Below are positions 4,485-60,511 of a DNA stretch of 64,000 nt, in pieces (position 1 is the stretch's first letter; each line of letters opens with the position of its first letter). The notes under the pieces are model-generated. The model saw only the letters and a list, made by a program, of their open reading frames with translations, did no database searches and was not told the origin of the DNA. The DNA comes from Candidatus Danuiimicrobium aquiferis (GTDB taxonomy: Bacteria; Omnitrophota; Omnitrophia; Omnitrophales; Danuiimicrobiaceae), in assembly GCA_001804285.1 (NCBI GenBank), contig MHFR01000008.1:2740-66739 (forward strand), read 5' to 3'. The position numbers were made by a program, and so were the translations under genes.

Positions 4485-4524
4485 AGATATTTCATTAACG
4501 GCAAATTTTTCAAGAGATGAAGAC

Positions 4525-5346: not shown

Positions 5347-5357
5347 TCACCGTTGTT

Positions 5358-6651
5358 TTATTTTCTTATGTCAATGGGAACGTAATCGGTTCGTTCCGGT
5401 CCCACATAAATTTGCCGGGGACGGCCGATTTTAGCCGGTTTCGACTCGCGCATTTCTTTCCAATGCGTAATCCATCCGGGCAGCCGCCCGATCGCAAACA
5501 TCACCGGAAACATATTGGTAGGAATCCCAATCGCTTTCAGCACAATCCCGCTATAGAAATCCACATTGGGATATAGATTACGCTTAATAAAATATTCTTC
5601 TCTCAGCGCCCGCTCTTCCAGTTTCATCGCAATTTCAAGAAGCGGATCCGTTCCTTTATGCTTCCGCAAAATCTTATGGCAGTACTCTTTAATAATTTTA
5701 GCTCTTGGATCATAGGTTTTGTAAATCCTGTGTCCAAAACCGGATAGCCGTTTCGACGAATTCGGAATCATTGCCTCGCTCAAATATGAATCAATGTTGC
5801 CGCCCGCTTGATGAATTTCTTCTAACATTTCCATCACATCCTGATTCGCTCCGCCGTGGATCGGTCCTGACAGCGCGGAAATTCCGGCGGCAATCGAAGC
5901 ATAAATATTGGCACGTGCACTGCCGACGAGGCGCACCGTTGACGTGCTGCAATTTTGCTCGTGGTCGGCATGGAGAATAAACAAAATATTGAGCGCCCGC
6001 TCCGCGTCCACATCGATGTTAAAATCCTCATACGGAAGCGAAAACATCATGTGAAGAAAATTCGCGCAATACTTCAAATCACGGCGCGGATAAATGAACG
6101 GCTGGCCGATCGAACGTTTGTAGGAATATGCGGCAATCGTCCGCACTTTCGCCATCAATTTAATCGCTGTTTGCTTATACACTTCATCGTCTTCAGCGGG
6201 ATCTTTCGGTGTCGGATGAAAACCGGACAGAGCACAGACAACCGACGACAGAATCACCATCGGATGAGTTGTACTTGGAAATCCGTAAAAGAAATGTCTT
6301 ACATCATCATGGAGCGCGGCATTTTCCGTCAATCCGGCCGAAAACCAATTAAGTTCAGCCTCGGTCGGCAGTTGTCCAAACAAAAGCAAATATGCCGTCT
6401 CTATAAACCGCGAATTTTCCGCCAATTGTTCCACCGGAATTCCGCGGTAACGCAGAATCCCTTTTTCTCCGTCGATATAACAAATCGCGCTTTGGCAGGA
6501 TCCTGTATTGCCAAAAGCAGGATCGTATGTAATATACGATGTCTTTGATCTTAACTCGCTCACATCAATTCCGCTGTCGCCTTCCGTCCCGTGAACGACC
6601 GGCAATTCATAGGCCTTCCCGTCAATTTTTAATTCAGCTTTGTCTGCCACA
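5358..6651 (-). CDS. gltA: Citrate synthase.
   Basis: The protein aligns along its length to type II citrate synthase (…GIPVEQLAE…HADHEQNCSTSTVRLVGSA…GFGHRIYK…DPRA…). The ORF track extends the N-terminus to 6788 through a palindromic repeat (translation PHPNPLPEGEGRGEG). A GTG at ~6649 preceded by AGAGG is the more likely start. Confidence 0.88.
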
Positions 6652-12800: not shown

Positions 12801-15800
12801 TGCCCTCCTTCTTGAGAAAAAAGAGGCGGACTTAAAACAGGCCGGCCTTCGCGGTCAAAAGAAATATGGATGCCGAGACTCATCACCTGATCCATTGACA
12901 TATCTCGGACATGAAACGCTGTCGTTCCCCAAGAAGCCCCGAAAAATCCTTGCCCAAAGTTTTCTTTCTTGAATAACACTCCCGTAATTTCCACGGCATC
13001 CATCTCTTCACCGTTGACAACAACCGGTTCCTTCAACGCTATGCGAATGGTCCGGCCTTCGGCCTTGTTTTCCGTTAATTCTTCGTACCCGATTCCCTTC
13101 CATTCATCCGGATAATAAGCAGAAGCTTTTTCGATTTGCGCTTGCAGTTCCGGTGTTAAAGCTTTCCATAGATCGGGAACGTAAGTCATTTCAAGGGGCC
13201 GTGAGCCTTGCCATTCGGCCGTTATTAATGGATCCGTGATGGGGTCAACCACATTTTTTCTTGCCGCCAAAAAGGCGAAGGTGTCTTCCGCCAGCCATTT
13301 CGCTATTTTTTCTCCAATCCCGCGGATTTTATTTTGGGGATCCTTCAGCCATTTCTTGAATTGATCCGCATGATCAAAACTCCGCTCGCCGATTTTCGCA
13401 ACCAATTCCTGAATGACTTGCTCTGATTTGACACCGCTCGCTTGAAACACTTGAGCAATTCTGGCTTTTATCACTTCATTCCAGTCAATCGCACCCGCCC
13501 AAGTTTTTTCCGCACTATCATTATTGAAGCGACCTTCGGACCGACTAAATAACTCTTTATATTTATCCACATTAATCGTCACATAATCATCATAATTGGC
13601 ACGACGACTATAAGTTTTGACATAGCCTTCCTCTTGCAAACGGCGCAAAAAGCCTTCCATTGAAGATGCCTGAAAAACCCATGAAGATATGTTACGAGTC
13701 AGAGCCAGATAGCCTACAAGCAATTTCATAATGCCCCTTCTTTGAGGCATACTAAGTGCTGAAATAACAGAAATTGATCCGGAACCATCAATTTTATAGC
13801 CGACAGAACCAACCACGTTACCATCCGATAGGTTCATCACCGCTAAATGAAACATTTCGCCGGTCCTGGAATGGTGAACAATGAGAAATTTGACAGAAGT
13901 ATTCAAAATTTGTCCCACCGCTTGTTTTAACCGCTGTTCAAGCTCCGCATTCTCTTCCAATTCCCGCATTTCGGAGCGGCGAGCATCGGAATTCTGTCTC
14001 GGTCTTTGTCCGGATAAATACTCATCAATTGAAACTCGCCTTAGTATTTTTTTCAAGCGGTTAAACGTATGCCTGATCGAGCCGATAGAGATACCGGTTC
14101 TTTCTGACAAAGCGTCCATGCTCGAGAGCACAAAACCTTGATCGAATTCTTCCAAAATTCGGTTTGCGACCCGTCGCTCTTTGACCGGGAAAGATTTAAT
14201 CGCTTCATCAACGATTATTTCCAGCATGAAACGCCGTTCCGTTTCGGACGCCCGAAAATCATCAATGGCGGCTATCAGAACCATTTTGCCGCCGATATTA
14301 GCCCAATCCTTCCTCAACCCTAATTGCGAAAGGGTCAGGAAATCTTTGTACGACCTTCTCTCTTTCACAAGACCAACTTCTTCATATTTGATCTTGTTAG
14401 CATTTAACGCGTTGTATATGACGAAACGATTTTCAACTAAACCTTCCGAGAAATCGACCACGTTTCTGACGGTGGGCGCAATGTCCGCCGGCACTTTAGA
14501 AACCAACATTTTAAGAAAACTTTTCCGCTGATCCTTGGTTTTCGGCAACACTCTTTCCCTTACCAAGCCGAGCTCTTCGTAATTCATATCGTGCGTATTC
14601 ATCGCCGATCGAATTTGCCGGGCAGTAACCGTTCCATTCGATTGATCCGCCACATTGTTCACCGTTGGCGGAAGCCCAGGAGGTAATTTCTCGATTAGTC
14701 TGCGCAAGAATTCTTTCCATTCTCCTGTAGCTCTGGCTGGGGGCAACGCTTTCTCCATCCCGACTTCCTGGAAAGAAATTGAATGAAAGACAATCGCTGC
14801 GCGAATTTGTTCAGGCGTATGTTTTCCGCCGGAAAAAGCTGCGACATTTCTCGCGGTTCGCTTCAATCCGGAAGGAATTTTCCCTGCAATAGCAGAAAGT
14901 TCGGCAATCCATTCTGAGCGCGACCTTTTCAAATCTGTTTCATTTATCATCCCGACTTCTTGAAAAGTAATTCCGTGGTAATATAAGGCGTGCCAAATTC
15001 CAACCCCCGTTACTTCCCGGCCCGAAATATCCGCAACATTACGCGTCGTAGGTAGAGTGCCGGCCGGTAATTCCGCGACCCTGGCTTTTAAATATGCAAT
15101 CCATTCCTCTCGAGACTTGAACTCCCTGGTACTACGGGCCATTCCAACAGTTCTGTAAGGAATATCGTGCTTCCACAATGCCATTGTAATTTGCCGCTCT
15201 GAAAGAAAACTTCCCCACACGCCGGCGAGAACTTCAGGTGTTGCCGCTCTCCAGTGAGGAAGAAGTGTCACAAGGCCTTTTAATAATCTGATCCACTCAT
15301 TACGATTTTTTTTCTTCTTTCTCAGCAGCTGTTTAAGCTCTTTCCCGATAGCGGGACTCACCCGTTTTTCTCCTCGCGTGTCTCTCATTCTCTTTGCGCG
15401 ATCAGCGAGGCCATAATTCTGGATGCGCTCCCAAACTGTTGTCATATTGACATGCATACGTTTTGCCATCTTTTCCAAATGAGCATGATATTTTGCAAGC
15501 AATTTTTTAAAACGCTGCAGTTGAGAACGGTAACGCGCGGCGTTTTTCTCAAGCCCGAATCGCCTGATTTGACTGACAATAGCAGAACTCTTAACTCCTC
15601 CTAAATCTTCCGAGACTAATTTTAGATTCGCGCCTCGTTTTCTTAAGAGCTGATTCAGCACACCTTTGGTCACCCATCCAGCTTGTCTTGCCCGCAGCTC
15701 GGCCCTTGGCGAAACACTTTGTACACGCCAAGGACTCTCGTTCGTTTCGATTGATGACTGATTGGAACTTTCTTTATTGTTACGAACTTCGGAGCGATGC

Positions 15801-18800
15801 CTCAATGCATCGCCCGAAACAGTCTCGGATTTAACCGAAATCCGAGGCGGCTCGGACATCGCAACGGTTGGTTGCGATGCCGGAGCAGTCCTTAACTCCG
15901 CTCGCGATTCGTCGTGAGCTTCGGCATGGCGTGCTTGACTCTGCATAATACCTGTGCTAAATTTACTACCAATATGAGTACGTTGGTCCGAAAATATATC
16001 AGTATCAATCCTGCTATCTGCCATGGAAAGCCCTGTTTTCGCGGTACCCGGATTCCTGTATCCTTGATCCTGCAAATGCTTGAGGGGGGCGACTCTGTCA
16101 GCGCCATTCTGCGCGGATATCCTTCCCTTTCCAAGAAAGCGATCCAGGCTGCGTTGGAGTTTGCCAGCGAAGTCATTGACAAAAACCGTTTGAGCGCCCG
16201 TGTCCTCGCTGCTTAAATTTCGAATTCTCGCCGACGAAATGATCCACCAAGATGTTATCCGGTTGTTGATCAGTTTAGGAAGCGACGTTATCAGAACTCC
16301 AAAAGGATTCAAAAATGGCCAGGTATTCCAACTCGCAAAAAAAGAAGCGAGAATCTTACTCACCCAAGATAAAGACTTTTCCGACAGTAAACGATATCCA
16401 CCCTCTCTGACTGCAGGAATCATTTGCTTGCGCGTTTTTCCGCCGACCATCGCCAATCTGCTATCCCATGTCAAGAAATTCATCCATAAAACAACACCGG
16501 CTGACATCAAAGGGGAACTGACCATCCTTTCATAAAACGCGATCCCACGCCGCGTTTCGGAACGGCTTTCGCGTTCCTGCTCCCTTTTTGGCTGACTGTC
16601 ACCTGTTCGCAATCCGGAGGCATCAAGAAAACCACCTTGACTGTGGTTGAAATACAGAGCGACATCACTCAGTTTGCCACTACTGACAATAAGCCTTAGC
16701 GCTTCAAACTGGCCATAAAGAAAGCGCACATTTTTTTTCAATGCCCGGTATTTTGCTGTACTGGGAAACCAAGCTAAAGTTGCTTCGATTATTCCAAGTG
16801 CGGTATCCAAAGCATGTCCGACCATAATATCTCCCGACAAAGAACGCTCCTGCCTTTTTCTGCCGATTTTTCTGCCAACGATCGGATAAACAACCTCGGA
16901 CAACGGTTTCTTAATCTTTTCCAAAGCCGTCATGAATTCGGAATCCAATTCGCCGACTTTTGCTGCGTCACCCGCGTATCTCTCAACAAGCGTTTCAAGT
17001 TGAGGCCGCAGCCGGTCAATTTGATCCAGCACTTCAAGAATCGCTTTTTCATCCTGTTCAAGTCCCTCAACCTTGCCTTGCCTCGCTTCGGATCTTGATG
17101 CGGTACCTTGACTAAAAACACCTGCCGTGATAAACTCCCGCAGAGGTAAAACGAATGGACCCTTTAATCCAAAAATATCTGATAATTGACTCCAAAATCC
17201 AACACGGAAAACCTTGCTTCCGGGGAACCCGGATTCCGGTTTATGCGGTACTTGAGCTCTTAGAGGGCGGGGTGAAACCGGAAGAGATTGTGGGCGAGAA
17301 TTATTATCCGAATCTAAGTCTTGAACATATCCGAATTGCATTGCGCTTTGCAGCCCAATGGGCGAAAAACCAAGAATACTTTCCTTTTGAACAAACAACC
17401 TGAGCTTTTGAATGAAATTCCTCATTGACGAGGACATTCCCCTCAAACTCCTCAAAACACTTCTAACGCTTGGCCATGACTGTGTCCGCGCAACACCGGC
17501 TTCATCGGATCTCGAAGTGGTTGAGCGAGCTGAAAAGGAAGAAAGAATTCTGATCACTCTGGACAAAGACTTCACTAATATCACGATATACCCGCCGACG
17601 AAATTTAATATCGTCCGAATCCAAATCCATCCTCCGTATGCCGATACGATTATCGAAGCATTCCAAAAACTCTTAAATTCCGTTCCAGCGAAGGACTTCC
17701 AAGGATTAATCATTCTCCAGCCCAAAGGCCATATCCGCGTCATTCCGTAAACACGTTCCCGCGGCACTTCTAATCTCTGATTTTCCCGCGCTTCGGCCCT
17801 TGAACTGACTGTCATCCTGAGGGAGTCCGAAGAACGACTCTCCGCCACTAAAGCGTGGGCGGATCCGGCCGCGCTGTTTGGCGGAGAAGGATCTCCGGTT
17901 ATTGTCTCTGTCCGTGGCTTCCCCCCGGGCAAGCCCGGGGCACCTTTCAAAATCTGGCCTCGCTTGGAATTTTCTCTTTCCATGCTCGGCACGCCCTTCG
18001 GGCGCCATTCACCCCCGGGCAAGCCCGGGGAGCTCAAAGCGGCGTTTAGATCCTTCGACTCGCTCCGCTCGCTCAGGATGACTCCGACCCTACGCAGCTC
18101 GGAGCGGATCCCTTCTTTGATCCAAATAGATCCATCCGTCGGCTTTCCATACGACTGGCTGTCATAGAATGCACTTTCTATCATGTTCATGTCGAAAAGC
18201 TGGTTCATCCGAACACGGTGATATCCTGGGAAATTGGAATCACCCCCTTGGAAAGAAATCACGATCGGCGGGAATACAGTCCCTTCAGAAAGTATCTGTC
18301 CAAAATTCAAATCAGCTTTTTGTAAATAATAAGTTGTCCGCTCTCCGAAAATATCTCTGAAATCACCTTTCTTTGAAAATTCACGTTCATGATAAACAAT
18401 CGTCCGATTTACCGGTGGCATCCGGTTGCCGTATGACCACTGAAAACGGATCTCATAGTCATTCGGATTTCCACCCTTAACCACTTCAATATTGGTTGCC
18501 CCCAACGCTTCTAATTCCCACAATATCGGGATTTTGGTGTTTCCGATTGCCCACAAAGCCGGATAATCAATATAACCTTTTACAAGTAAACTCGAGCGGT
18601 AGGCCTCCTTCAATTCCTTGACATCTTTCTCCTGCACATCAAAACCAAACGGCAACGCATCATAGAAATGCATTTCTTTTGCATCCGTCATCAAAAGAGG
18701 CGCGATCACATCTGCGCCAGAAAACGGATAACTTAAAACGCCACCATCAAATCCGTTCTTCTTCAATTCCGCGTGGATCTTCGCATAAGCCAAAGAGACC

Positions 18801-21800
18801 GCCCCTGAGATGAAACGGTTTTCTATAGCTGTCCTGTGAATGAGCAGTTCTTTCGGAAAACGTTTAGACTCAAACAATCTCCGTGCAGCCATATGAAATA
18901 GAACTGTTTGGAATTGAAAAGTTTTTTCAAGAAGAATTGCTCGATACACCTGCTGTTCAACGGTGAATGCTAAGCCCACTAAACGTGCTCTCTCTTCCGG
19001 TTGGTTTCTCAACTGTGGAAAAAATACTTTCAAAATCATATCATGCGAACTTTTTCCGATTGTAAGCACCAGTGGACCATCAGGAGTTAAAGGATCTGCT
19101 TTCGCTATATCAAGCCGCTCGCGAATCAATTCTTTGACAAAAATTCCTTCGGTTTCCAACCTTGTCACAATCACTTCATCTGGATTTGAAGGCATTCGCT
19201 TTCCACCTGTAGCGTCTTTAGTCCCAAGCCTGGGAAGAAGAAATACTTGAAATAAGCGAGCCCGGTCATCATCGTTCCCCGCCAAAAGATCGATTCTTTT
19301 CTTGGCTTGGACAAGAAAATCGATAACATCTTTAAGCGGATCTTCATGGTTAACTTCCTCTAAACGATCAACCCCCGGCGTCGCAAACGATTTTAAAATA
19401 TAGGCTGCCAGCTGTATTAGCTTTTGAACTGACGAGTCGTCATCGGCAATTTGATTTCTTTCCATCTGACCTTTCAAAATCTTTAACTGACTGCGTGAGA
19501 TTCCGTAAAGCTGCGTCTGCTGTCTGCTTTCTGCATCTAACAAAGCTTGTATAAAACGAGGACCTGCTTTTTGATCGCGTTTTAAAAGCCCTTTATCAGC
19601 CGCAGCGATCAAACGATCAGCTGTTTTGACAAGTTGAGGAACCGATTCTACCGTTTGCCCATCGAGCGAGCGCACTTCGGCACGTTTGGCTAACACATGG
19701 TCCGCCAAAGTACTCTTGCGCGTCTTGATTGATGCCTGGTTGGAACTATTGTCATTGTTACGAACTTCGGACCGTGTAACGAGTACGGCGCGTTTAAGCC
19801 ATTCGTCGAAATGTTTGAGCGCCTCGGCGGAGACAGCGAATCCATCTGTTAGAGCCTCGCCCGACAAAAGAATTTTATTCCGCCCGGACAAGTATGTCTC
19901 GGTAACTAACAATGAATCTAAGTAAGACTCAAATCCGTTCGGGTCTTCCCGGTATTCTTCGTCCCCATCATCATCAAACAACATCTGATTCATTTCCGTT
20001 TCGATTTCAGTCATCGCCTCATCAAGAATATCCATAAAAAGATTTAGATCAATCCGCGTTTGCTGAAGGCGTTCTTTTGCTTCTATTTTGATGGTGGCCG
20101 GAAGTTCTTCGTTATACCGAATACTAAATTCCCGCAGCAAGTCGGCGTTTGTTGCCAGCGAAATCCCGAAATGTTCTCGCTTTATTTCTTGCATGAAGCG
20201 CAACGCGTGTTTGGCTGCTAACTCAGAGATCAAATCTATCAGCAGCGGGCCTTGCTCAAGTTGTGCAGTCCCTTGCTCTTTTGTTGTCGGATAATCCACC
20301 AAATCCGTTCCACTTTTCCGCATTCGCTCATGAACTGAATAATTCCGGTCCAGCATTTTTCGATACGTCTTCTTCAACACTTCCTCCGCCGCATAGGGTG
20401 TTACCGTTTGAGAATGTGTTGCATAATAATCTGTAAGCACCTGGCTGAATCGAGCCCTGAAGCTCTGTTGATGCGATAGAACCCCACTGAATAGTGTGTC
20501 GTAAAGCCCCCGAACCTCGGCCCTGGCAGTGGCAGTCTTCTGCCCGCGCCACAACTGCCAGGACACTTGCGCGCCTGGTTGAATCTCCGCTTTTGTATTA
20601 TCATTATTGAAGCGCGCTTCGGCCCTCGCTCGGTTCCTTTGTGCATCGCGAGGACTCTTATTCGTCACAATTGATAACTGGTTGGAACTACTTTCAAGGT
20701 TACGAACTTCGGCCCGGGGAAAGATACGGGCCCGTTTGAATCGCTCTGCTTTATTCCCTCCCATTTGTTCGGGAGTAGGAGATGTCAGGCCCATCGATGT
20801 GGCTGTCAATTCGCCGTCAACGACAGCAAGGGCCCGCTGCTGATGGTCTGCCGCTTCTCTCGCCAATGAAGCGAATCGGCTACGATCTTTTTCACCAACA
20901 TCTTCTCCTGACGAAAAAAAGTTGGTGTCAAAATCTCCGGCCCACGGCGCCAGATAAAGCAAGACGTCGATTCCTATCTTGTATTGTTTTGAAATTTCCT
21001 TTAGCGGCTCTAAAAATATTGTCGTGGTATTTCGGTGGTGATGATGCCGGTCCTCCCAATGCGGAAGAATGACCGACCACGAAATGCCGTCCGCACGGCC
21101 CGATTCCAACGCCGCCCGGTGTTGGCGGTAAAACGTTTCGAGGCGCTTTTTCATGCGGGCCGTCGCATCCTGAATCGCCCAGTCCGGCGCCAACCCAATT
21201 CCCCGCTGATACGCGGCAACTTCTTCATCGAGCCACTTCACTCTGATTTTGCCGGGCAATCCTTCCCGCAACACCGCGGCTTCACCCGCTATTTCTTTCC
21301 GCCGGATGACACGCCGCATCAATTCTTCAATTTCAAAATTTACCGCCTCACCCACTTTCCAATTCTGAATGAAACGGAGAAGTTTTTCGGGATTCGCAAA
21401 ACAATTTAGTTTTTCTCTGATCACCGGATCGATCTGAGTTCCTTTTTTATCCAATTCCTGAAGCACTCTTTGATAAAATGCATGGACATACTGAATGGTG
21501 CGGTAGAAACGGCTGTTGGGCCGGTACACTTGCTTAAGCTTCCTCATCGCCCAGCGGATTTCCTCTTCTTTGAAATCTGCCACACCCGTGTGGCCCGATC
21601 CGGCCACCCAATTTTCGACCTTCATTCCTTGGCCTAACGCATCAATCATGGCAGCGGCCGCCGCGACCACATCGTCGTCAGGATGAGGAGAAGCTATCAT
21701 CAACGGAACGTCCTTGTTCAAACGAAGCTGAAAATTTTCCTGAGCGTTAACAATTTCACCATTCTCAATCCGTACCACAGTAAACGGATTTGCATATTCA

Positions 21801-24800
21801 ACGTCATCGCCCAGCGCTCCGTCCAGTCTTCCTCTGAGAGCCGCGTAACGCGCCATTTCTTCAAGAATTTTCAGAAAATCAGTCCGGCGCAATTGAGTGT
21901 CTTGACTTCCAAACCCACGCAGGGCTTTTGTAAATCCGGCGCGCGAAAGCGGAAAATAAAAGTTGGCGACATTTCCCATTTGGTAAGATTCATAATAAAG
22001 AACCGTCACCGGACCTGCGCGGGCATCCGCATACGATTGAATAAACTTCTGCACCCACGTATCGTTATGAAATCCGTCATACGGAGCCAGAATCAAATCC
22101 GGCTGAAAATTGCCAAACACTTCACCTGGCGTTTGTTTTAAATCAAAAGCAAACTTGCGGACTTTATTTTTCAATTCGGACGATTGAATGGCTTTGACAA
22201 ATTTCCCGGCCGTATGCGCCGAGCCGCCCGGTTCCAATTCAAGGAGAGCAATATTCAGATTGTGCGGCAACGGAAATTGCTGGACCCTAACGTCAATTTT
22301 CTTATTTGTTAAAATCACTCCTCCCTTCACCTCGTCAATCTTCCAATCAACGTTCTGTATTTCAGCACTACGGATTTCGGCCCTTGGCGAAACACTTTGT
22401 ACACGCCAAGGACTCTCGTTCGTTTCGATTGATGACTGATTGGAACTATCTTTATTGTTACGAACTTCGGAGCGATGCCTCAATGCATCTCCCTCAGCCA
22501 AAGGCTGATCCGCCTCTGGCGGAGAAGCAGTCCCGCGCAGTTCAGCGCGGCGCAGCTCTGCGCGGTTATGATCGCGACTTCCGCTCCCGGTATCCCGTCC
22601 CGGATAGCCGGGCTCTTGATTTTCTGTGGTTTCTGGCCCTGTCGTGCCGGGTGCCCCGGTAGTAGCTTTTTTAAGCAGCTGTCGCAATACTGAAACGGTA
22701 CTCCCGTCGCGGGGAACCAATCGGAGGGCTTCTCTCGCCTGTTGATCCATAATCCGGTCATATGCCTGCTGGGTTTTCCGCATCGTCTGGAAACCTTGGA
22801 AGTTGATGAGAGGCCTAAGCGCTGGAAGCACAAGCGCCATTCCAAAAGATGTCACGAACCATGGGAGAGAAAAAAGCAGCATTAATAGGAAACTGAGAAT
22901 CGGAATAACAATCAGAGCTGAACCCAAAAACACTTCCATTCTTAAGCTCTGCAAATACTCCCGTTTCGCATCATATCTGTTTTCTATTGCTTTTCCGATT
23001 TCATCCCCGGCAAGAAGTTCGCCGGCCTGGTCGCGACGCGCCGGATCGGAATGGACTTGAAGAACGACTTGCAAATACGCGAGTAAACTTTCCCATTCGT
23101 TCATTAAAAAGAGACGGTGGAACACATGATCAAAACCATGAGAGAAAATACTCGCAACAAAAAAGAAATATGCCGCAATCATCGACCAGAAGCCAAAAGC
23201 CACGAACGTATTTAGCGCCGGCATTAAAGGCATAATCGACCGGAACATATAATACATTCCATAAAATAGCACTCCCGTCCCAAACGCCCATTGGGTCAAT
23301 TTGGGGCTATAGGTCCGGAACCAATTGGCAATTCCCGTGAATTCATGCTCAAACCGCAAAGGCGCGCCATAATGAAAAGGGTCGGTTTCCCGCTGCGCTA
23401 AAATGTGTGACAACACATCCGGCGGCCATCCTAATTTGCCCAAACGCTCAATTTTGGTCCGCAAGGTTTTTGCATCGTCATCCTTCTTCAACCTATCGAG
23501 GACCGGCGCTTCTTCAACGATTTTTCGAACCTGAGCGGTCTTGTCTGCTTCACTGCCGGCGGATTGTATTAAATGGACTGCCCATTCACGCCACAAGATC
23601 TGACGCGCCCACAAATAGATGCCCCTCGTGGGAACAAGATCGTCCAGGTCATAACCCATCGACCGGGAATCAAATCTGACGCGGGCTTCCAGCGAAGAGC
23701 CATCGATGTCCATTGAATCGATAGGCGTCATGAGCAAGTTCTGAAGCTCCATCAAACGCTCATTTCTGTTTGTTTCGATGGGCATCGTAAACAAAACCGG
23801 ATAGGGCCAGCCGGTTTTCATTCTGGTCAAAGTTGTCGCGTGCTCAAGGCCCTGCTCGGTTGCGAGTTGCAATCCGGAGATCATCTTTAAGATCATATCT
23901 TTATGTTGGGCAAATAATTGTCTGAGCGGCGCAAGCGATGGCGAATGGTCCAAATCCGCATCGCCGGCTTCATCCCACTGAAGCGCCTCCAAAACATATT
24001 TTCTGGTTTCCGGCTCTGTCAACTCAGGGAAAATCGCGAGAAACATAACTGCAACTGCAATTTTTAAAATGTTCTTCCTTCCGCCTTCGGAATTCTTTTC
24101 GATTGCCTGAAAAGCAGCCGCCACTTGTCTATCAATCGTCTCGAGAAATATTTTATTCAAAGCGCTGCGATCATTCCTCACATGAAAAGCCATGAGCAGA
24201 AGATGAAAATAGACGTATGCATTCCTGATCTGCGGTGGAAGTTGATGCAATCCGTCGAGCATCTTCCGCCGAATGTCAGCATGCTCGTCTGAAGGCGCAA
24301 GCGCACTTACGAATAACAGAGGAAGAGATATCATGCTTTTTTCGGCCGCCGGATGATAAATCGAAAGGATGTCGTTCAGCTGATCGATTGCGTCTTGAGA
24401 AACCACATCCTGAACGAGCAAGTAATGCGCCGCTGCGAACAAAACTCCCATCGGATCATGTTCGGATAAGCCATACAGCTCAAACTGCTTCCGGAAAAGT
24501 TCGCGGTGTTGTTCGTCTAATCGAGCGGTAATGCCTCGCATCAAGTCCCTATATTGGCCTTCTGCAACCGTCTTTCCAGAGCCTGTCTTCATCACGGACT
24601 TCAGCTGTCTCAACTGTGAAACAATATCAAATGACTGTTCACTCCGCGCTTCGGAGCGGCCGTGAACCTCTGGCAATACAAGGCGAGGCATTTCGTCTGA
24701 CGTAAATACAGCAAATCCGCTTTCTTTCCCCGCCGGCGGCCGGATAGATCCTATAGATGGAAATGGCCGTAAAAATTTATCTTTCACGAGTTCTCTGGCG

Positions 24801-30800: not shown

Positions 30801-33800
30801 AAGATAAAATGTAAGGACGCTAATGCCTGCTTTTCGTTCGACAAATCTAAACCGAACCCCAATGGATTCAAGTCGATATCGTCAAACACCGCCATGAGCG
30901 CGACGGCCGGATCCATGTTGAAATACTTCTTCCGCCGCGGAAGAAGCGCATTCGCCAAACCCAAAACTTTGAAATGGCCAACTCCCGCTGTCCCTTTGCC
31001 GATTTTGTAAATCTCCTGCCTGACCGCTTCTCGTTCCGCTTCCGAAAGCTGTTTCCTCCGCTGATATTGCTTCATTAAAAGCGGAAACTCACGTTCAAGC
31101 CGGTGCCGAATCGACCGGCTCGCCTTGGTACGCGTTGTCCAATCTGGTTTGAAGCCATACGGGCTGAGGTGCAATTTCGGAAACGCCGTTATTAATGCTT
31201 TCTTATAATTTCCTTCAAGTGCCGGAACAGCTTTGCGTTGAACAAATGAGGTCAGCGGGGGTTTTCTGAAATAGTCTGAGCTAATGTCATAAATTTCATT
31301 TTTAAGACTCGCTATTGCTTCCTCATTCTCCAGTTGATCAAGGCGCTCATACCGTTCGACCATATCGGGAAATACCTGAGACAATGCGAAGCGGAGAGAT
31401 TCTTCAAGTTGATTTTCCAAATCCAAATGAAAACCAAGCGGATTCAGCTTCAGGTCGGAGAAAACAGCCATTAACACCTTTGCGTACTTGCCGTCAAAAT
31501 AAGAAACGGTGTTCTTATTGAGAACACCCGCAAGCCCCCAAACGCCAAAATGTTCGCTGTTAATTTTATAAATGTCGTCTTTTAATTCCCTCAGCTCATC
31601 TTCGGTTAATTCTCCGCGACGGTCATACCGTTCCATGATCGTTGGAATTTTTCGCCGCAATCTAAACTGGATTGCTTCCATCGTTTCTTCATACGATAAA
31701 TTAGGGCCAAAACCGACCGCATAGAAACCGAGCGGATTAAGTTTTAGATCGGGAAACGCCGCGACCAGCGCACTCTTGTGGGAACCTTCAAAGTACGGTG
31801 CTTTATCGACCAGGAGGGCTTGCTGCATCCCGGGCCAGCTTTCGAATTCCTGGCGCTGGATTTCGTAAATGTCATCTTCCAAAATCATCCTTTGATACGG
31901 TGTCAGTAGATTCAGTTTTTTGTAACGTTTCATAATATCCGGTCTCACCCGTTCAATGGCATGCTGGACATTCTTAATTCCCTGCGCCATTGTCGTTCCC
32001 AACCACTGATACGGTTGAGTCTGTCCACCTTTTGTCCTTTTATATTTTTCCCCCCGCACCTCGGAGCGATGCCTCAATGCATCGCCCGAAGCAGTCTCGG
32101 ATTTAACCGAAATCCGAGGCAGCTCGGCCCTCGATACACGCCTTTTGAAACGTATCGAGGACTCTCGTGCGCTTTCTATTGATAAACGCTTTAAACTATC
32201 TTCATCGTTGCGCACCTCGGAGCGGGCCGGACGTTTGGATTTTTTATCCGCAGCCGTTTTTTCGGCTTGTCTCACCCGAACGGCACGGCGGCGATGGAAT
32301 TCCAAAGCCACCGTCAAACCTGCAAAGGTAGCCACCCCAAAACCGACACCTGTCACAATCCGGCCCCACGAACGCCCGCATTTTTTTTCAGGCGGAGCAA
32401 TTCGTTCAAATTCGCCCCTCACCCAATCCGGTTGGCTTTCCAAATGATCACCGACCAAAGTTTCCAAAATTTCCGCGTTTGGTTTGCGCCGTTCTTCATC
32501 CGCTGTGTAATTGGGTGAGTTGGCAATATCAACCGCTTTGATTTGATTCCCAAATCGATCGGAAAACTTACCGATCTGCCCGATCAGTTGCGCATGCCGC
32601 GCCTCTTCTTGTGGCGATCGGTTAACAAGATAATGCGGCTGATTTCCTGTCGGCACATGAAGATTATTGGGTTCTACTGTGCCGGCAAAATCAGCATCCG
32701 CTGTGAGATAAATCTGCGCATCGCCAATCACTTTTGCAATGGCATCCAAATTGTCCGGATCCAAAATGTGGAGTGTGACCTTTCTTATATCCGCAAGCTC
32801 AATGGTATCGAGTTCCGATCCCGTAGGAGGGTTCTTATCCGGATTGGGTTTTATCAAAATTTTACCTTGTGCGGAACGTCCGATCTCTACGTAATAGTCT
32901 CTGTAAGAATAACGATACTTTTTGCTCGCCGTTATGAATGCCTCTTTTGGGACAACCCAGGCAATTTCTATCGGCTGATTTCCATCATCAAGAGTTCCGT
33001 GAGCAATAAGTAACCGTAGCCATTCGCCTTCGTCGATGTTGCTTGCCGTAACAATATCCAATTCGTCATTGTCCTTAACTCTTTCCAAACGCTCCTCAAT
33101 CCCGGCCATTTCCGTTCTTGGTGCATCCAGATTCGCCATATCATTATGAGCGTCCCAGGTGACCACTATTTTTTTCCGGCCCGGCTGAAAGATTTTTGGA
33201 TTTTTAAAATCTCTGGCCATATGCGCAAAACTCATATTATGCCCTTGGGCATACCGAATGGGAGCACCTGCTTTCGTTCTGGCCGGTTGCTGAAACAATT
33301 GATTATGAATTTCAAGTTCTTTGAAGATGGGGGCCGCTTGCACCTGCCATCTTAAATATTGACTCATTTCCGAATTCAGATCGACATGCGGCCCAGGCGT
33401 CCCGAACGGCTGAAACCAGGTTTGAAATTTTCCGTACATATACCACACCAACAATTCATTTCTCCACGCACCTTGCTCATCGCGAATGAAAGTTACTGAT
33501 TTGTGCATTTGCTTGAAAACGGTAAAATAGGTTTTAAGAAACTCGTTTTTTGAAACCGCTGGTTCCAAAGCCTGGTGCAAATCTGTTTCATATAAAAACT
33601 TGACCGCCCCATACCAGTCACTCATATCAAGCGCGTGAACAAAATTCTTCCAATGGATGTACTCGCTATGGCCCTCTCCGATTTGAACGCCCCCGGCACG
33701 AACCAACGATTCAATAAATTGGCCAATCGGTTTTCTTTCTTGGCGCATCCGCTCTCCGTAAGATTTGTGCTCTTCAGTAAGCTCCTCCGCGCTTTTCAAC

Positions 33801-36800
33801 ATATGTTCCTTCCCCCGCATGAACGAAAAGTACACGATGGGAGAAAAAATCATTGCTGCCGCGGCGGCCAGCGCACCAAGTAATCCTCTGCGAGAAATTC
33901 CTGTTTTAAACGAATAGGCGATTGCTTCCTGCTCTTCACGCTTCAATCCTTTTATGCTTGTCCCCTGCAAAGCCATTTCGAATTGTTGCCGAGTTTTGAA
34001 AGGACGCTTCGCGAGAATCCACTGAGCCAATCGATCTTTCACTGATTGATCCAACAAATTTAATTGAGGGATGGCATCCACGTACCGCCGAAGCAGTTCC
34101 GGCTTCATTAGATTCACATTCGGTTTTTTAACTCGCCCAGTGCCTTCTGAAACTTGCTTTTCTTCCCCTTGCCGAACTTCGGACATCGCAACGGTTGGTT
34201 GCGAAAAAGTTGTCGCCTCAGCCAAAGGCTGATCCGCCCCTGGCGGAGAAGCAGTCCTTAACTCCGCTCGAGGTAAGGGCACTTCGGCCCTGGCAGCGGC
34301 AGTCTTTTGCTCGCGCCACAACTGCCAGGACACTTCGGCCCTTGGCAAAACACTTTGCCCACGCCAAGAACTCTCGTCCGTCGCAATTGATAACTGGTTG
34401 GAACTACCTTTATGGTTACGTACTTCGGAGCGGAAGAAGCGGTTGCTCCATGTCTGCGTTCGAGCCTCCTTGGGCTGTGTCATCCACTGCCAGGTCCTAC
34501 GAATTCCTTCCGCCGGCGTTACAAAATCATTTGGATCGAGACCAAGAATTGCCTTCATACGTCTCGTATCCATAAGCAAGCGAGGAATTTCTTTTGATGC
34601 AGTATCGAGGATGAGCGCGGCATCAGAACCCGAAGCATCAATAATCGCCTGCGCAACTTCTTTGTCCGAATAGCGCCTTCGCGCGCCGACATTGATTACT
34701 CTCTGATCTCTCAACTGATCCAAAGACGAAACAGCTGCGCGTACAAATGCACGTGCAACATCATCAACGTACGTTAGATTCTTTCTAACCGGTGAATATT
34801 TCAGCTCTGCCGCGCCATGGGCAACTTGATAAAGATACCGATGAACTAAACGGCGGTTCAAATCCGTTCTTGCGGAATCATAGGCTGGTCCGTAAACATT
34901 GCCAAGACGAAGCGAAACACCATTTTCATATTGATTAATGATTCTTTCGCAAATGCTCTTGGCGAGGGCATCCAACTTGGTTGCGTACTTTCCTGGCGGA
35001 GGGCGCGTGCTGAGAAAATCGCGTATTTCCTCCAATGTTTTCTTCTGATCCGCAGCAGAGGAAAGTCCAATAAAAAACTGAACCATTGTCTGAACCCAAG
35101 TTTCAAGTTTGGGTTCTAACTTTAATCCAGTTTCCTTAAGCAAACGTTTCCCTTTTAAATCCATAAGATCATACACGCGCATAGTGGAAGCAAAAACGAT
35201 ACGAGGCTTATGCGAGCTTTCCTGCGCTGTTTTGACAAAAATTGCCGCGGGGAGAACATTCCTATACATAAACTCGGAAATGTCCGCATCTTTCGCGCCC
35301 GCAGCGCCCCACATGGCCAAATGGAAAATGACGTCATTTTGATTCACCAACGCCCGCTGTAAATGAATGTCTGGGAGAGTCCCGACCTCAATTCCGGCCT
35401 TATCCTGATAATCAAAGCGATAGCCACTGAATGGTGCAAACTCTTCCTTTAACAGAACAGGCGTGGTTCGCTTCGCCATCGGCAATACCATATCCATCAA
35501 TACCGAACCAATGTTTCCTCCTGCGCCGGTGATCACAACTTTCTTATCGCGCAGCTCGGACATCGCAACGGTTGGTTGCGATGCCGAAGCAGTCCTTAAC
35601 TCCGCTCGAGTTAAGGGCACTTCGGCCCGTTTAAAACTTTCCATTGATAACTGGTTGGGACTACTTTTATTGAGGCGAACTTCGGCACGCATAACGGTTT
35701 CTCGTTTCAGTAGCCGCTGAACACCTTCGGCCAGCATAATAGATTTAATCAGCATACCGGCCGAAGAAATAACCGGGAACCCGTAACGCTCTGAAGCCAA
35801 CAGTATCCGATTGATTTTGGGAAACATACTTTCGCCACGGCGATGAAAACGCAAAATAGACGCTATCTCGGCTTTAAGACCAATCACGTCAGGATGAGAA
35901 GTCTCCGTGTCAACGGCATACCTTTCAACAAAAGCAAATATATCCCGAACGATATCGGTATAGGGTGTACGGATAATGAAACCATCCGCTTCTGCGGTAT
36001 AAACCATCCGGTCAACCATCAGGTAAGGCTGTTTATATTGCCATTTCGCTGGAGGATTCGACAATAAAGAAGTAATATCTGCTTTAAGTTTCTCTTCATT
36101 ATAATTTGAAGCGGTTTCTCCATGTTTCGTAAGCTCACCAACAATATCGTCAACCACTTCTGTTGTCTCTTTATTCTCGAGCTCCTTGAGAATCGCATTG
36201 ACCGCTTCATCAAAATCTTTGGTGCTGTCATAAGTTTCTCCCTGTAGCACCATCTTCACAAAATCTGATTTGAGGTCAAATGCTGTTTTGTCTGTTTGAG
36301 TGTCAGCCCATTGCACGAGGTTGATTAATCGCGAATTAAATTTCGGATTGGATGCGGATTTTTCAATTAAAAATTCAGAAAACTTATCACGCACTAACGC
36401 CTTTTGTTGATCATTAGAGGAATAGCGTCTGCTCCTCGATCGATACCAATCGGTTTGCCTATACTGGTCTATAAATTCTTTGAAAGCAGTCTCAATAAAA
36501 ACGATAAGCGCTTCATCGTCATCCGTCAACTGAGGCTTTTTAGTTTGAGCGTGAGATTCTCCTGCGGATTTCTGTATAAAATTCGGATCACGCTTATCAA
36601 CCCATGGGAAATAGAACCTAAATAAGAAAAATCGTAAAATCTTCACAACGAACGGAATCGACAGCAGGCAACCAACGAGCCACAAGCCAAAACGAGAAAG
36701 TGGCTTTTTCCCATGCTGGAGGATTCTGACGCCAACGCTCACCAAATCCCGCCTCAGACTACCCGATAAATATCCAACTTGCCCAAAGTCAAAAAGTGAA

Positions 36801-39800
36801 ATCATCCCTGTTAATTCTTCCCCAAAAATATTGCCGGGATGCGGATCTGAATGGAAAACCCCATCTGCAAGTGCCGCTAAGACAATGAGCAAAATCAATC
36901 TTCTGGCCGTTCTCCTCCGCAATAAAGGATTTTTCAACTCAGTGGCTTTAATACCTTTAACAAAACTCATTTCTAAAACATTCTCATTGCTTCCGTAAAT
37001 GGCGGGCTTACTGAATCCATCCGGATAGTGTCGAACGAGCTGTCTTGCCTGTTTGGCTTCGACATTCATATTAAGTTCGCGACGGACCGCTTTTTCAAAT
37101 TCCTCAAAAAACCGGGAAGGCGACATTTGAATAGCATCAGCTCCGGTAAATTTCTCCTTCGAGTTTTCCAGTGTCTTAATCACCTCTCTGATTTTTTCTA
37201 AACCGCTTAGGATTTTTCTTTTTTTTGCAGCAGGTACGACTTTCAAAACAACTTCTTGCCCATCGTGAGTTTTCGCAAGAAATGTGTCTGCCACCGTTCC
37301 GACTTTTAATCTTTTTAAATAAGGCATTTCGATTGCCGCACCCTCGATGGGCACCAACGCTTCGACAAGCGGTTTCCCATAGTAATTTTCAACGGAACGG
37401 ACTATCTCCCCCATTTCAGCGGGCGTCCCTTGATCTTGAAAAACCTCAAACGCCTCACGCATTCCTTCCGGCACCAAGCCTTCCCTCGTACTTAAAAACT
37501 GTCCCACCTTTTCAATTCCCGCAATTCTGAAAAATTCCGCATACGGTTGGGCGGCATGCCATTCCAGAAACCGGTCTTGAAGATCTTTTCCGTTTCTATC
37601 GAAAAGAAACAGTTGAAATCCATTTAAGTCCTTTGAGTATGAACTTCCGTCAAATTCACTCAAAAAATCTTGCTTGTTGGTCTCTGCGAAATATCTCCTT
37701 GCCTGCTGATAAAAATAAGTTTGGTCCTGGGAAGGATTCTTTCCATGATATTCCCCAAATGTGTTTAATATTTTTTCCTGATCACCCGCCGATAATCTTG
37801 AAAAGAACTCCCGTAATAAAAACTGCGCCAATTGAGGCAATGATTTAAGATGTTCTGAAAATCGGGCTATTTTCTCCATATCGGGCGGTTTGGCTGTGAA
37901 AACCCAATGCGCAGCATCCTCTTCTTCAATGTGCGGTGTTTGCATCCGACCCGCCAAGTAGCCGTCAACGCTGTAAGGACTAACTCCCAAAGGCAGGGTA
38001 CGGGCCGATGATTGAGGCGCTGAATCGGCAAAAATGGTCTTAACCCGCCCTGTGAATCCGGTCCTGCTGGCAATATAGCCCTCAACCGAGTGAGGTGACA
38101 AAGAAACGACGTCAACTTTTCGAACCTGTGGAACACGGCCCAAACTTTTCAAAACTGCTTCTGCGTTGGATAGATCATTCGGCGTGTTTAAATCAAGCAG
38201 GCCGTTTTCCTCTTTCACTTCATACATTCTTAACAAGTCCGTTCCCATAAAGAAACGGAAAAGAAAACCCGTTCTTACAATTGCGAAACGATTCAACTTT
38301 TTCGTTTTTTCATAATAAGCACGGCTGGATAGCGTATCTTTATGGACAGGGCCTTTAAACCATTGGATTAATTTAAATATAAATCTGACGAGTTTAAAAA
38401 CAAATGGGTGAAATAAATGAATACTGGCAGCAACTTCATGAATATTTTCCAGTTCATCGGCAGTTAAGTAACTGCCATCTGAAAGCTTGAGGCTTCCACC
38501 TTGCTCTTTTAAAAGGTCAATCTCCCGTTGTGTTGCGATTGTGTCAAATCTTCCGTTTCTTAATCGAACGATGCGGTCTACTCCATGCGGCTGAGTAAGA
38601 TGAGTGGTTACAAAGGTATAAAGCGCGGGCCAGCCACGCGGCGGTGAATGAATATGCATGGCATCAAAAATAATTTTCGGATTCGTAATGATCACATCTG
38701 CCGGCACGATCAATATGTGCTTGGACCTAAATTGATCTTGATATAAATCATACGGGGTAAATGCGGCATTCAGAGTACCAATATTGACCGGCACGACGGT
38801 GCTATGCGTCTGTTTTGCTGCTTCACTCACTCGAGAATCCGCTTGCGGATGCTCACCATTCAATACGGACACAAAAGATGTCAATCCGATTTCATCTGCT
38901 GTATCCAAAAAATACCGCATAAGCGGCTTCCCTGCCACATTTCTAATTTGTTTCGGCGTGGTATCCCCATCTGAAAACATCCGGCCGCTCGTTCCAGCAG
39001 CTAATTGAATTGCAACCCAAGAACTTAATTGATCTTTTCTGTCATTTTGTTCGCTCAATTTCTGAAAATCATAATGATGGACATCAAGAACAAAACGATA
39101 ATCAGGGATGAAAGGCGTAAACAGTGATGCTATCCGATTAGGAACAAGTAGGTGCGCTAATATCCATGCCACAAACCAATTCTTTTGATCAATCCGCGTA
39201 CTTCGAAGCAAGTGTTGCTGTCTGGCTTTATTAATGTCCTGTGCAACAAAAAGAGTTTTGGCTGCCCTTACCTTTTCGAAGAGAAATTTTGAAAATGTTC
39301 CTTCAATGATGATCATGGTATTCGGTTTTAGTGATTCGGAATTGATCATGTCTTTATTTAGGGCTTGCGAGAAGGATTGAATCTTTTCTTCATCAACATA
39401 ACAATTCGCAAGATAATGGATGAGTATTTTTTTCACGGTTTTACTTGGAATAACGGAAGCAAACAAACTGAAGGCAAAACCAAATAAAATCTGAAATACT
39501 AATTTAAATCCCCATGCCCGTGTTCGAGAAAAATCGCTCGTTTTGACCAGAATTACTTCACGCCCTCTTTGTTTTAAGAATGCCTGATATTCTTTGGCAA
39601 ATGTTGATTTCCCAACGCCAGGGACGCCATCTATCACAAGAATGAGATTCCGTTCTTTATCCTTCAAGAGTGAGGATGTTAATTTCTCAAACACTTGAAT
39701 ACGTTCAGAAACTGTTCCCACAGCGGCAGAAGATTCATTCCGTAGCTCGGAGCGAGGATTCATTTCCTCCTCGCCTGGAGCAGTCATTGACTTAACCAAA

Positions 39801-60124: not shown

Positions 60125-60511
60125 TTATTTCAATCGAATTTTTCTTCGAACGAATTCGCGGATTTCTTTCAAAGCCTTGATTGCACCCATAGCATCACGC
60201 CGCATTGCCCGTTCACCCGGATATCTAAATTCAACCGAGTACGGATTTAAAGAAATGATCAGGTCCGAAACCAACTCAAAATCTCCGTCTTCATCGGAAC
60301 AAAGATTTTTTAGAAGAATTAAATCGTGGGTTTTGGGAAAGGAAATCTTTTCACGGGATAGATAAGCTTTTAAATATTTTTCTACGGACTGCTGACTGTG
60401 GAAGCAAATAGAACTGAAAAGATGTTTCCGTTTCGTTTGCGACAAAATAATCGCTGCACAATAGTCTTCTTCCGCTTTTTCGCGCCATTCTCTCGCAATT
60501 TCACTGCTCAT
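60125..60511 (-). CDS. HEPN-domain protein (toxin of a HEPN/MNT pair).
   Basis: The protein is 128 aa, with a C-terminal …EFRYPGE… (Rx4–6H-like region). It overlaps the upstream MNT gene by 11 nt. Confidence 0.65.
   Translation of the reverse strand: MSSEIAREWREKAEEDYCAAIILSQTKRKHLFSSICFHSQQSVEKYLKAYLSREKISFPKTHDLILLKNLCSDEDGDFELVSDLIISLNPYSVEFRYPGERAMRRDAMGAIKALKEIREFVRRKIRLK

Follow-up and report, generated by a model that had tools for sequence, protein, structure and literature searches.

The 64,000-nucleotide window analysed here (positions 2,740 to 66,739, forward strand, of contig MHFR01000008.1 of Candidatus Danuiimicrobium aquiferis, Omnitrophota; NCBI assembly GCA_001804285.1) carries, on its minus strand, a single open reading frame (ORF) for a giant protein of 13,076 residues. 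The chain begins with a signal-like N-terminus and a conserved domain of about 530 residues, followed by about 20 modules that are split by low-complexity linkers. Seven different enzyme-type folds, each in one copy, were recognized on it with Pfam and NCBIfam, and most of them belong to sugar-nucleotide or glycan chemistry. The explanation that we favor, with a confidence that we put no higher than even, is that the protein would act as a scaffold, associated with the membrane, for independent modules that share a sugar and amino-sugar theme and stand as neighbors, not as the steps of a channeled linear pathway. The protein is a further example of the multi-enzyme giant class described in Omnitrophota, and the only feature of it that we have not found described is a pentapeptide, R-[S/A]-E-x-R (RSExR-type), that recurs in its linkers.

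Omnitrophota are bacteria of ultra-small size, for which a life on other cells, or as predators of them, has been suggested. Giant proteins make up a large share of their small genomes.

Integrity of the reading frame

The giant ORF runs for 39,231 nucleotides without a stop codon, and ambiguous bases are absent from the window. At least six independent public assemblies carry the first 9.8 kb and the last 7.6 kb of the gene at 99.99–100% identity; at the compared ends the DNA is that of contig MHFE01000018.1 (NCBI GCA_001805325.1), and in ENA ANAN16 scaffold_313 the product is likewise called at 13,076 residues. Because the ends match across assemblies and one scaffold calls the same number of residues, the frame is not an artefact, and the enzyme set does lie on one chain, as had been proposed in the original prediction (a reading of the letters of the window, made without database searches).

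The NCBI record for the same gene in GCA_001805325.1 gives a product of only 9,377 residues, although the gene is internal to its contig, and one ENA contig stops 13 codons past that point. Both ends (window about 17911–17950, residues 9377–9390) lie within a linker of low complexity that contains a G6 run and a CCCGGG palindrome, and could reflect a frameshift variant or an assembly break. These ends, and two modules with non-canonical catalytic or cofactor motifs (see below), are what could speak for an assembly chimera or for a decaying gene with pseudo-domains. That explanation is largely refuted, and we give it almost no weight, by the length of the stop-free frame, by gene ends that are identical or nearly so in the independent assemblies, by catalytic motifs of the PIG-L module that are invariant across homologues, by intact UbiB motifs, and by the conservation, hence selection, of one of the two unusual motifs.

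Enzyme modules

The chain was scanned as three overlapping pieces against Pfam, NCBIfam and the PDB sequences. Four weakly matching segments (P-loop, PIG-L, GNAT-like and methyltransferase) were concatenated and submitted to an exhaustive HMMER search of 1.84 billion representatives, which returned 119 relatives. A word-indexed homology search had given no match for the four segments and only one for 4,910 residues of dark sequence; these negatives are uninformative, because the exhaustive search later gave clear relatives for three of the four. The scans and a check of the catalytic residues upheld most of the domains of the original prediction, and no systematic loss of catalytic residues was seen. 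Five linker-bracketed enzyme units can be distinguished: a glycosyltransferase (GT) of the GT-B type, a composite of P-loop, nucleotidyltransferase and UbiB domains, a short-chain dehydrogenase/reductase (SDR), a PIG-L deacetylase and a methyltransferase (Table 1).

The GT5/GlgA-like domain had been missed in the original prediction and lies outside the range that it covered. Its core matches Glyco_transf_5 of Pfam (4.7e-20), TIGR02095 (1.2e-31) and GlgA in the PDB (4.8e-7). The TIGR02095 score is 109.9 bits against a subfamily cut-off of 328, and the domain would accordingly be classed as a family-level relative of GlgA, not as an orthologue. The motifs HRIGDQKG, SSFEPGGL and GHSLHWAYQG (HxxxxAYQG-type) are present, and the R/K/E positions align with those of E. 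coli GlgA, which we take to be R300/K305 (RLxxQKG) and E377 (FEPxGL) in E. coli numbering. The whole GT module is 41–44% identical to residues 2998–4003 of another giant protein, P0119.

The P-loop kinase proposed at 39.6 kb stands as a P-loop domain with an intact Walker A motif. Its identity as a kinase is less well borne out: the Pfam matches are all to P-loop families below threshold, and the best PDB matches (PSTK, thymidylate kinase and adenylate kinase) have E-values of 0.03–0.1. One relative of the segment has a PRK (PF00485)/uridine-kinase match at threshold and another a KTI12 match, so that "kinase-like" seems a plausible label. The NTP-transferase proposed at 39.0 kb is a GlmU-type domain (NCBIfam GlmU NF010932, 7e-11; PDB GlmU 2v0h, 4.9e-6; Pfam NTP_transf_3, 2e-3); the NF010932 match spans the N-terminal domain of that model only, and hence remains below the whole-protein cut-off. 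The signature LAAGTSGRM, followed by the conserved Lys (TPK), is kept, and the R and K of the GlmU type are present. Only 11 residues, with no linker motif between, separate the P-loop and nucleotidyltransferase domains, which are thus directly fused. The UbiB/ABC1 kinase proposed at 36.8 kb, with its hydrophobic helix, was recovered by Pfam ABC1 (1e-22) and by TIGR01982 (2.8e-31, below the equivalog cut-off), and its motifs GQ, VVLK, ELNMNVEA, HSDPHPGN and DFG read as intact.

At 35.5 kb, where an SDR epimerase/dehydratase had been proposed, the fold was confirmed by Pfam Epimerase (2e-14) and by PDB matches, and the segment keeps TGAGGNIG and the Ser/Thr position (AST); the catalytic Tyr is replaced (see below). 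The possibility that the unit is a recent duplicate of a stand-alone SDR 9 kb upstream was rejected (E 0.011).

The PIG-L/LmbE deacetylase proposed at 21.7 kb was confirmed along several lines. By Pfam alone the segment scored 6e-3, below the curated threshold. The exhaustive search yielded giant proteins, including P0046 (35% identity over 324 residues, E 1e-53), and shorter relatives that themselves score as PIG-L in Pfam (7.9e-18, 9.2e-12 and 6.1e-8); mapped onto the chain, the relatives widen the conserved unit to residues 7914–8470. PHPDD (residues 8132–8136, window 21674–21688) and DxHxxH (residues 8344–8349) are invariant in an alignment of 13 such modules. A profile search of the PDB returned LmbE/PIG-L structures only, diacetylchitobiose deacetylase (1e-10) being followed by TT1542, BshB and MshB. 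The AlphaFold model has a predicted local distance difference test (pLDDT) score of 88.6 and a predicted template modeling (pTM) score of 0.89, and when it was submitted to Foldseek the top 34 matches were all LmbE/PIG-L proteins, with probability 1.0 to family members. The module consists of two related subdomains, of which the first carries the C-terminal H-x-[S/T]-Q-type motif of the family; an insertion of about 100 residues, helical in the model, occurs in the giant-protein copies only.

For the SAM-methyltransferase (S-adenosylmethionine-dependent methyltransferase) proposed at 9.1 kb, the class I fold was established through bona fide methyltransferase homologues, and the SAM loop turned out to be non-canonical. 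The Pfam match (Methyltransf_25, 5.6e-5) is below the curated threshold, and the segment matches stand-alone proteins of 260 residues with E-values down to 3e-24; its homologues P0052 and P0062 are Methyltransf_25/11 proteins. The acidic residue at the end of strand 2 is kept (AIDN).

No GNAT fold was detected at 13.8 kb, where one had been proposed, in Pfam (E ≤ 1), NCBIfam, the PDB or the exhaustive HMMER search. The Q/RxxGxG/A position of this segment reads QRRGIM. P0132 was considered as a relative and rejected, being a short repeated motif match in an unrelated protein.

Because the motifs of UbiB and PIG-L, the R/K/E positions of the GT and the R and K of the GlmU-type domain are kept, it is plausible that these four domains are active enzymes.

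Linker motif and DNA repeats

Counted as R-[S/A/T]-E-[aliphatic]-R, the linker pentapeptide occurs 40 times in the giant ORF, against 0.5 in shuffled sequences; permuted patterns of the same residue classes reach at most 6 copies each, and the 6,697 residues of the flanking ORFs contain no copy of R-[S/A]-E-x-R. The copies extend from residue 590, just past the N-terminal domain, to residue 12558 (for example 34427–34441, residues 3884–3888, and 20702–20716, residues 8456–8460). They are written in many different codons, and it is therefore the peptide itself that is conserved. Together they form about 20 clusters, and pairs of them bracket the GT, SDR, PIG-L and methyltransferase modules (Table 1). 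On the folded PIG-L model the motifs lie 3–18 residues from the ends, and the last strand ends 3 residues before a motif. A longer linker unit, RSEVRN..SSNQ.SI...ES.WR.QSV.PRAE[VL]R, occurs five times. About half of the relatives described below are also enriched in the pentapeptide, with up to 21 copies against 0.2 expected; in these it comes after the N-terminal domain, and in P0042 it brackets a His_Phos_1 domain. Linker motif, linkers and processing are not mentioned in the searchable text of either of the two giant-protein preprints (10.64898/2026.06.07.730766; 10.1101/2023.11.21.568195), and a literature search with the pentapeptide strings gave no relevant paper.

A polyprotein is one way to account for such a motif: a dedicated protease would cut the R-[S/A]-E-x-R linkers, and about 20 products would be set free, among them enzymes, membrane anchors and arrays of DNA-binding-like repeats, some anchored in the membrane by hydrophobic segments of their own; the same linkers would serve as points of module-swapping recombination. 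The ordered copies, absent from the flanking ORFs and written in varied codons, indicate selection on the peptide, and they sit at the edges of folded modules, also in the enriched relatives; a twin-arginine-like signal comes shortly after one linker cluster; and West-Roberts et al. (2023; 10.1101/2023.11.21.568195) consider it possible that giant proteins are cut by C39 or S8 domains that they themselves contain. However, no protease domain was detected in the giant protein by Pfam, NCBIfam or scans of the dark segments, the adjacent PDZ protein matches proteases through its PDZ domains only, about half of the relatives are without the motif, and the motif could instead cap a structure, serve as a binding site or have arisen as a side effect of gene conversion between linkers. 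We regard processing of this kind as quite improbable.

The linkers also contain dispersed direct DNA repeats of 43–117 nucleotides with 97–98% identity (Table 1). Linker DNA that is so nearly identical suggests recent gene conversion or recombination between linkers, and would favor further recombination there.

N-terminal domain, hydrophobic segments and topology

In an alignment with its relatives, the N-terminal domain has seven invariant residues (H89, E117, G118, R488, G513, G514 and H516). Its AlphaFold model, of moderate confidence (pLDDT 78.5), combines a large helical insertion with an alpha/beta core. The domain belongs to no Pfam family, gave no significant PDB match by Foldseek or profile search, and had no relative in a scan of species-representative genomes. 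Weak but consistent hints point to erythromycin-esterase/ChaN-like folds, with erythromycin-esterase-like proteins and HopBA1 among the Foldseek matches, and one relative has a sub-threshold Pfam match to Cofac_haem_bdg (Tiki/ChaN superfamily). An identity as protease or esterase was not adopted, the fold hints being too weak.

Kyte–Doolittle scans revealed the signal-like N-terminus and about eight further strong hydrophobic segments, among them those at 23.0 kb and 33.87 kb that had been proposed as transmembrane blocks. Two hydrophobic stretches, residues 2194–2212 in the P-loop domain and 3058–3076 in the ABC1 domain, were rejected as membrane spans because they lie inside globular domains. 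The internal twin-arginine-like sequence SRRGLLGALAAAAA (window 33854–33895, minus strand; residues 4063–4076) is situated about 125 residues past a linker cluster, and matches Pfam TAT_signal with an E-value of 0.49 only.

The signal-like N-terminus is followed by about 2,100 residues in which no hydrophobic segment occurs, so that on a simple reading the GT, and possibly the block of kinase and nucleotidyltransferase, would be extracytoplasmic. This topology is the main obstacle to any mechanism. It would fit an exported effector or adhesin, secreted by means of the N-terminal signal to act on the envelopes of host or prey cells, in which the enzyme folds would be glycan-binding or cofactor-independent hydrolytic units, for example a zinc deacetylase attacking GlcNAc (N-acetylglucosamine)-containing walls. 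Such a role has been proposed in the literature for giant proteins of Omnitrophota; PIG-L enzymes need only zinc, the closest solved relative of the module acts on chitobiose, and the non-canonical motifs of the SDR and methyltransferase would suit binding. Against it, the UbiB, P-loop and GlmU-type domains keep nucleotide-binding or catalytic motifs that would be useless without ATP or NTP, no adhesin-type, dockerin, lectin, glycoside hydrolase or peptidase domain was detected in the Pfam scans, and the window contains no secretion-system genes. We think export of this kind unlikely, and it overlaps with the other explanations.

Relatives

A query with the first 5,000 residues returned 45 relatives, all of them very long (2,799–7,818 residues on record) and several labeled Omnitrophota or Omnitrophica. 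The similarity lies almost entirely within the first 550 or so residues. The neighboring citrate synthase is likewise closest to metagenome-assembled genomes of Candidatus Omnitrophota (63–68% identity). The best relatives of the individual modules sit in different giant proteins (P0001/P0119, P0002, P0025, P0046 and P0047). In P0119 a PIG-L module directly precedes the GT module, the reverse of the order found here, and in P0013 a GT5 domain occurs together with UDP-glucose dehydrogenase.

Another relative, P0020 (7,146 residues), has Isochorismatase, NAPRTase_N, CTP_transf_like, CN_hydrolase and NAD_synthase in its precomputed Pfam list. All four steps of the Preiss–Handler NAD pathway are thus present on one giant chain, which also has 21 RSExR-type motifs.

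Scaffold or mosaic

In the scaffold that we favor, the chain would hold at the cell envelope a number of units that catalyze or bind ligands independently of one another. The units would make NDP (nucleoside diphosphate)-(amino)sugars, act as sugar transferases and remove N-acetyl groups from GlcNAc-type substrates, and their target might be either a surface glycoconjugate of the cell itself or amino sugars from a host cell. The set of modules was assembled by cassette shuffling at the repeated linkers. To the reading frame, folds, motif status, module boundaries, family relationship and shuffling that the analysis shows, this adds a localization, substrates and a cooperation between modules that we infer. 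The sugar and amino-sugar set itself consists of the P-loop–GlmU-type fusion, the NDP-sugar-type SDR, the glycogen-synthase-like GT and the LmbE-type de-N-acetylase. The theme is favored because the P-loop and nucleotidyltransferase domains are fused, because P0119 has its GT and PIG-L modules side by side, and because the set of P0020 is themed; the complete NAD salvage set of P0020 shows that the class includes themed sets carried by a single chain, so that the idea of a theme keeps some weight.

The original prediction had gone further, to a tailoring pathway for O-antigen, capsule or glycolipid in which a sugar is activated, epimerized, deacetylated, re-acylated and methylated. A sugar and amino-sugar theme is real. 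The linear scheme is not supported: with no GNAT detectable the step of re-acylation is missing, the SDR and methyltransferase have non-canonical motifs (see below), and UbiB, the helix-turn-helix arrays and the large unassigned part of the chain do not fit. Nor does a dedicated pathway agree well with the very different sets carried by the 45 relatives of the N-terminal domain and the reordering of GT and PIG-L in P0119. No initiating transferase, flippase, polymerase or ABC exporter was found among the 19 flanking ORFs scanned in the window.

Several observations weigh against the themed scaffold as well. The YxxxK position of the SDR reads DALAK (LDALAK), against YALSK (WYALSK) in its closest relative, P0002, the Tyr being replaced by Asp; the unit belongs to the extended SDRs by its fold, but not by their catalytic motif. 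Motif I of the methyltransferase is ILERGPSLRD (LERGPS), against LDVGTG in the stand-alone relatives, and there is no GxGxG loop. The ERGP variant is conserved in four proteins at 42–47% identity, and for this reason it is taken as selected rather than decayed. Both units may bind ligands instead of catalyzing. The GT has SSGGL where KTGGL is expected, a Lys being replaced by Ser, as also in its relative P0001. On the simple topology the GT, and possibly the block of kinase and nucleotidyltransferase, would have no access to ATP, NTP, NDP-sugars, NAD and SAM, none of which is present outside the cytoplasm. No fold could be assigned to about 60% of the chain, and UbiB, the helix-turn-helix arrays and the 96-residue repeats are outside a glycan theme. 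Past the N-terminal domain the enzyme sets of the relatives differ widely (adenosine deaminase, Glu/Leu dehydrogenase, transaldolase, helicases, CheR and others), and with relatives so heterogeneous the theme could be a matter of chance in a sample of seven.

Chance of this kind is the substance of a further explanation, a mosaic of unrelated cassettes, in which the modules were gathered independently by recombination between linkers and do not cooperate, and the theme is a small-sample coincidence or reflects an abundance of sugar enzymes in the pool of cassettes. It would account for the differing enzyme sets of the relatives, for the finding that the best relatives of the modules are spread over different giant proteins, with the order differing between giants, and for linker DNA repeats of up to 98% identity that flank modules; long proteins are also reported to be overwhelmingly sequence-unique (Nielsen & Lui 2026; 10.64898/2026.06.07.730766). 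Independent gathering is harder to reconcile with the direct fusion of P-loop and nucleotidyltransferase, with the adjacency of GT and PIG-L in a second giant, P0119, with the coherent four-step NAD pathway of P0020, and with a sugar-metabolism module, centered on PF08323 and GT1, that appears in the co-occurrence analysis of the same preprint. We hold a mosaic without cooperation to be possible, if on balance doubtful.

Comparison with known systems

Nielsen & Lui (2026; 10.64898/2026.06.07.730766) distinguish a "multi-enzyme metabolic cluster" class (class 1) among 916 proteins of at least 10,000 residues. The protein described here resembles this class in its length of at least 10,000 residues, its origin in Omnitrophota, what by hydropathy would be a signal-like N-terminus and scattered hydrophobic helices, its many distinct Pfam families of which none dominates by copy number, its methyltransferase, its starch-synthase catalytic domain (PF08323) and GT1, its protein repeats without DNA-level tandem repeats, and its lack of a close full-length homologue. 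It differs in that the combination of UbiB, GlmU-type domain, two-subdomain PIG-L and helix-turn-helix arrays, and also R-[S/A]-E-x-R, are not mentioned in the searchable text of that preprint.

The "Archaeovorins" of West-Roberts et al. (2023; 10.1101/2023.11.21.568195), in which a GT5 glycogen-synthase-like domain is the second commonest, share with this protein GT5 and methyltransferase domains, an N-terminal region without an identifiable domain, multiple hydrophobic helices, and the same paradox of cofactor-dependent enzymes predicted to be extracellular. However, the threshold for Archaeovorins is 30,000 residues, against 13,076 here; SecA_DEAD, HEAT, glycoside hydrolase, peptidase and NUDIX domains were not found (Pfam E ≤ 0.01, and E ≤ 1 in the dark segments), and no type II secretion genes lie near the giant gene.

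Compared with stand-alone LmbE/PIG-L enzymes (MshB, BshB, diacetylchitobiose deacetylase and teicoplanin Orf2*), the copy described here has the same fold, PHPDD and DxHxxH, but it is embedded in a chain, is preceded by a second related subdomain and has the insertion of about 100 residues. Clusters for O-antigen, capsule or glycolipid likewise bring together nucleotidyltransferase, NDP-sugar SDR, glycosyltransferase, deacetylase and methyltransferase, but as separate genes, with an initiating phosphoglycosyl transferase and export by Wzx/Wzy or ABC systems; the giant protein is without an acyltransferase step, and its SDR and methyltransferase motifs are non-canonical. MARTX toxins are very large secreted chains in which independent enzyme modules, joined by unstructured linkers, are exchanged by recombination between strains; their repeat regions are rich in glycine, and the linkers are cut by a cysteine protease domain of the toxin itself. 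The likeness to them is one of working principle alone, and neither glycine-rich repeats nor a cysteine protease were detected here.

Protein repeats and neighboring genes

The coordinates of all features are collected in Table 1. The array of about 16 repeats is homologous to residues 3115–3774 of P0004. No DNA-level tandem repeat was detected under it, the copies being too diverged, and Rfam and Tandem Repeats Finder gave no matches. Helix-turn-helix-like repeats (about 54 residues, GLN..QAA..IGVS..GL) were seen not only in the array of Table 1 but also at residues 10257–10574 and about 10650–10680. The C-terminal third of a giant protein that would be membrane-associated is a puzzling setting for so many motifs of the DNA-binding type.

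Table 1. Features of the giant gene and its product (positions in the window; residues of the protein)
Feature	Residues	Window	Strand	Basis or remarks
Giant protein gene, single ORF	13,076 in all	6851..46081	-	stop codon within coordinates
Signal-peptide-like or anchor segment	13-31	45989..46045	-	ends ...ALSYA, followed by QE; hydropathy scans; positively charged n-region read from sequence
Family-defining N-terminal domain	~32-560	44402..45988	-	common to at least 45 other giant proteins
GT module	914-2008	40058..43342	-	RSExR at residues 851 and 2002 as bounds
GT5/GlgA-like GT-B core	1130-1864	40490-42694	-	~250-residue insertion; Pfam, NCBIfam, PDB
P-loop NTPase, kinase-like	2132-2345	39047..39688	-	Walker A GVPGVGKST (39602-39628), MIIIEGT; hydrophobic insertion at 2194-2212
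GlmU-N-terminal-type sugar-1-phosphate nucleotidyltransferase domain	2356-2540	38462..39016	-	LAAGTSGRM, TPK
UbiB/ABC1 atypical kinase, then hydrophobic helix	2858-3126, 3131-3149	36635..37510	-	Pfam, TIGR01982, hydropathy
Extended SDR (NDP-sugar epimerase/dehydratase-like)	3510-3871	34469..35554	-	RSExR at residues 3492 and 3884; 43-nt direct repeats outside
Hydrophobic segment	4067-4088	33818..33883	-	hydropathy; twin-arginine-like SRRGLLGALAAAAA just before
Tandem repeats of ~96 residues, ~16 copies	4696-6250	27332..31996	-	no known family; consensus ends ...FPKLKLNPLGF
Pair of strong hydrophobic segments	7627-7646, 7717-7735	22877..23203	-	hydropathy
Two-subdomain PIG-L/LmbE deacetylase module	7914-8470	20672..22342	-	RSExR at residues 7900 and 8456
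Segment earlier called GNAT-like	~10705-10860	13502..13969	-	outside the verified enzyme set
Tandem helix-turn-helix-like repeats of ~54 residues, at least 8 copies	11694-12171	9569..11002	-	Pfam HTH_3 8e-9, summed over sub-threshold stretches
Class I methyltransferase-fold module	12285-12500	8582..9229	-	RSExR at residues 12208 and 12511
Direct repeat pair of 43 nt, both sides of SDR module		34248-34290, 35586-35628		98% identity; repeat family D4
Dispersed direct repeat pair in linkers		15699-15815, 22377-22493		
Dispersed direct repeat pair in linkers		15847-15904, 35551-35608		

Downstream of the giant gene are genes for citrate synthase, a DUF4912 protein, a GH57 branching enzyme and a PBP5-type carboxypeptidase, and upstream of it genes for a PDZ protein, histidine kinases and response regulators. 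The DUF4912 and GH57 genes (window 2883–5346, minus strand) lie between the citrate synthase and PBP5 genes. In two other Omnitrophota genomes (loci L001 and L003) citrate synthase directly adjoins PBP5, with no giant gene upstream, and the alpha-glucan genes and the giant gene look like local insertions. A functional tie of the giant protein to citrate synthase, DUF4912 and GH57 was set aside, the citrate synthase–PBP5 pair occurring elsewhere without a giant gene.

Two further groups of genes lie in the window. At 56277–57962 (minus strand) one protein of 561 residues joins a response-regulator receiver domain to a beta-ketoacyl synthase, an unusual fusion; its neighbors are an SDR, an ICMT-family methyltransferase and a seven-transmembrane histidine kinase, and the group looks like a lipid-related regulatory cluster. 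At 60125–62329 (minus strand), upstream of the two-component cluster, are genes for a HEPN-domain protein and an AbiEii-type nucleotidyltransferase toxin, of the toxin–antitoxin or defense type.

Implications

The protein is short enough to dissect. Its verified modules have defined boundaries and could be expressed singly, and for its unusual LmbE-type deacetylase of two subdomains there is now a model of high confidence. In R-[S/A]-E-x-R, a simple sequence rule marks the boundaries of modules in many giant proteins. Without a role in cleavage or recombination for this motif, the protein would stay a well-annotated but ordinary member of its class; if the motif is such a signal, it would explain how the giant proteins are built, diversified and perhaps processed.

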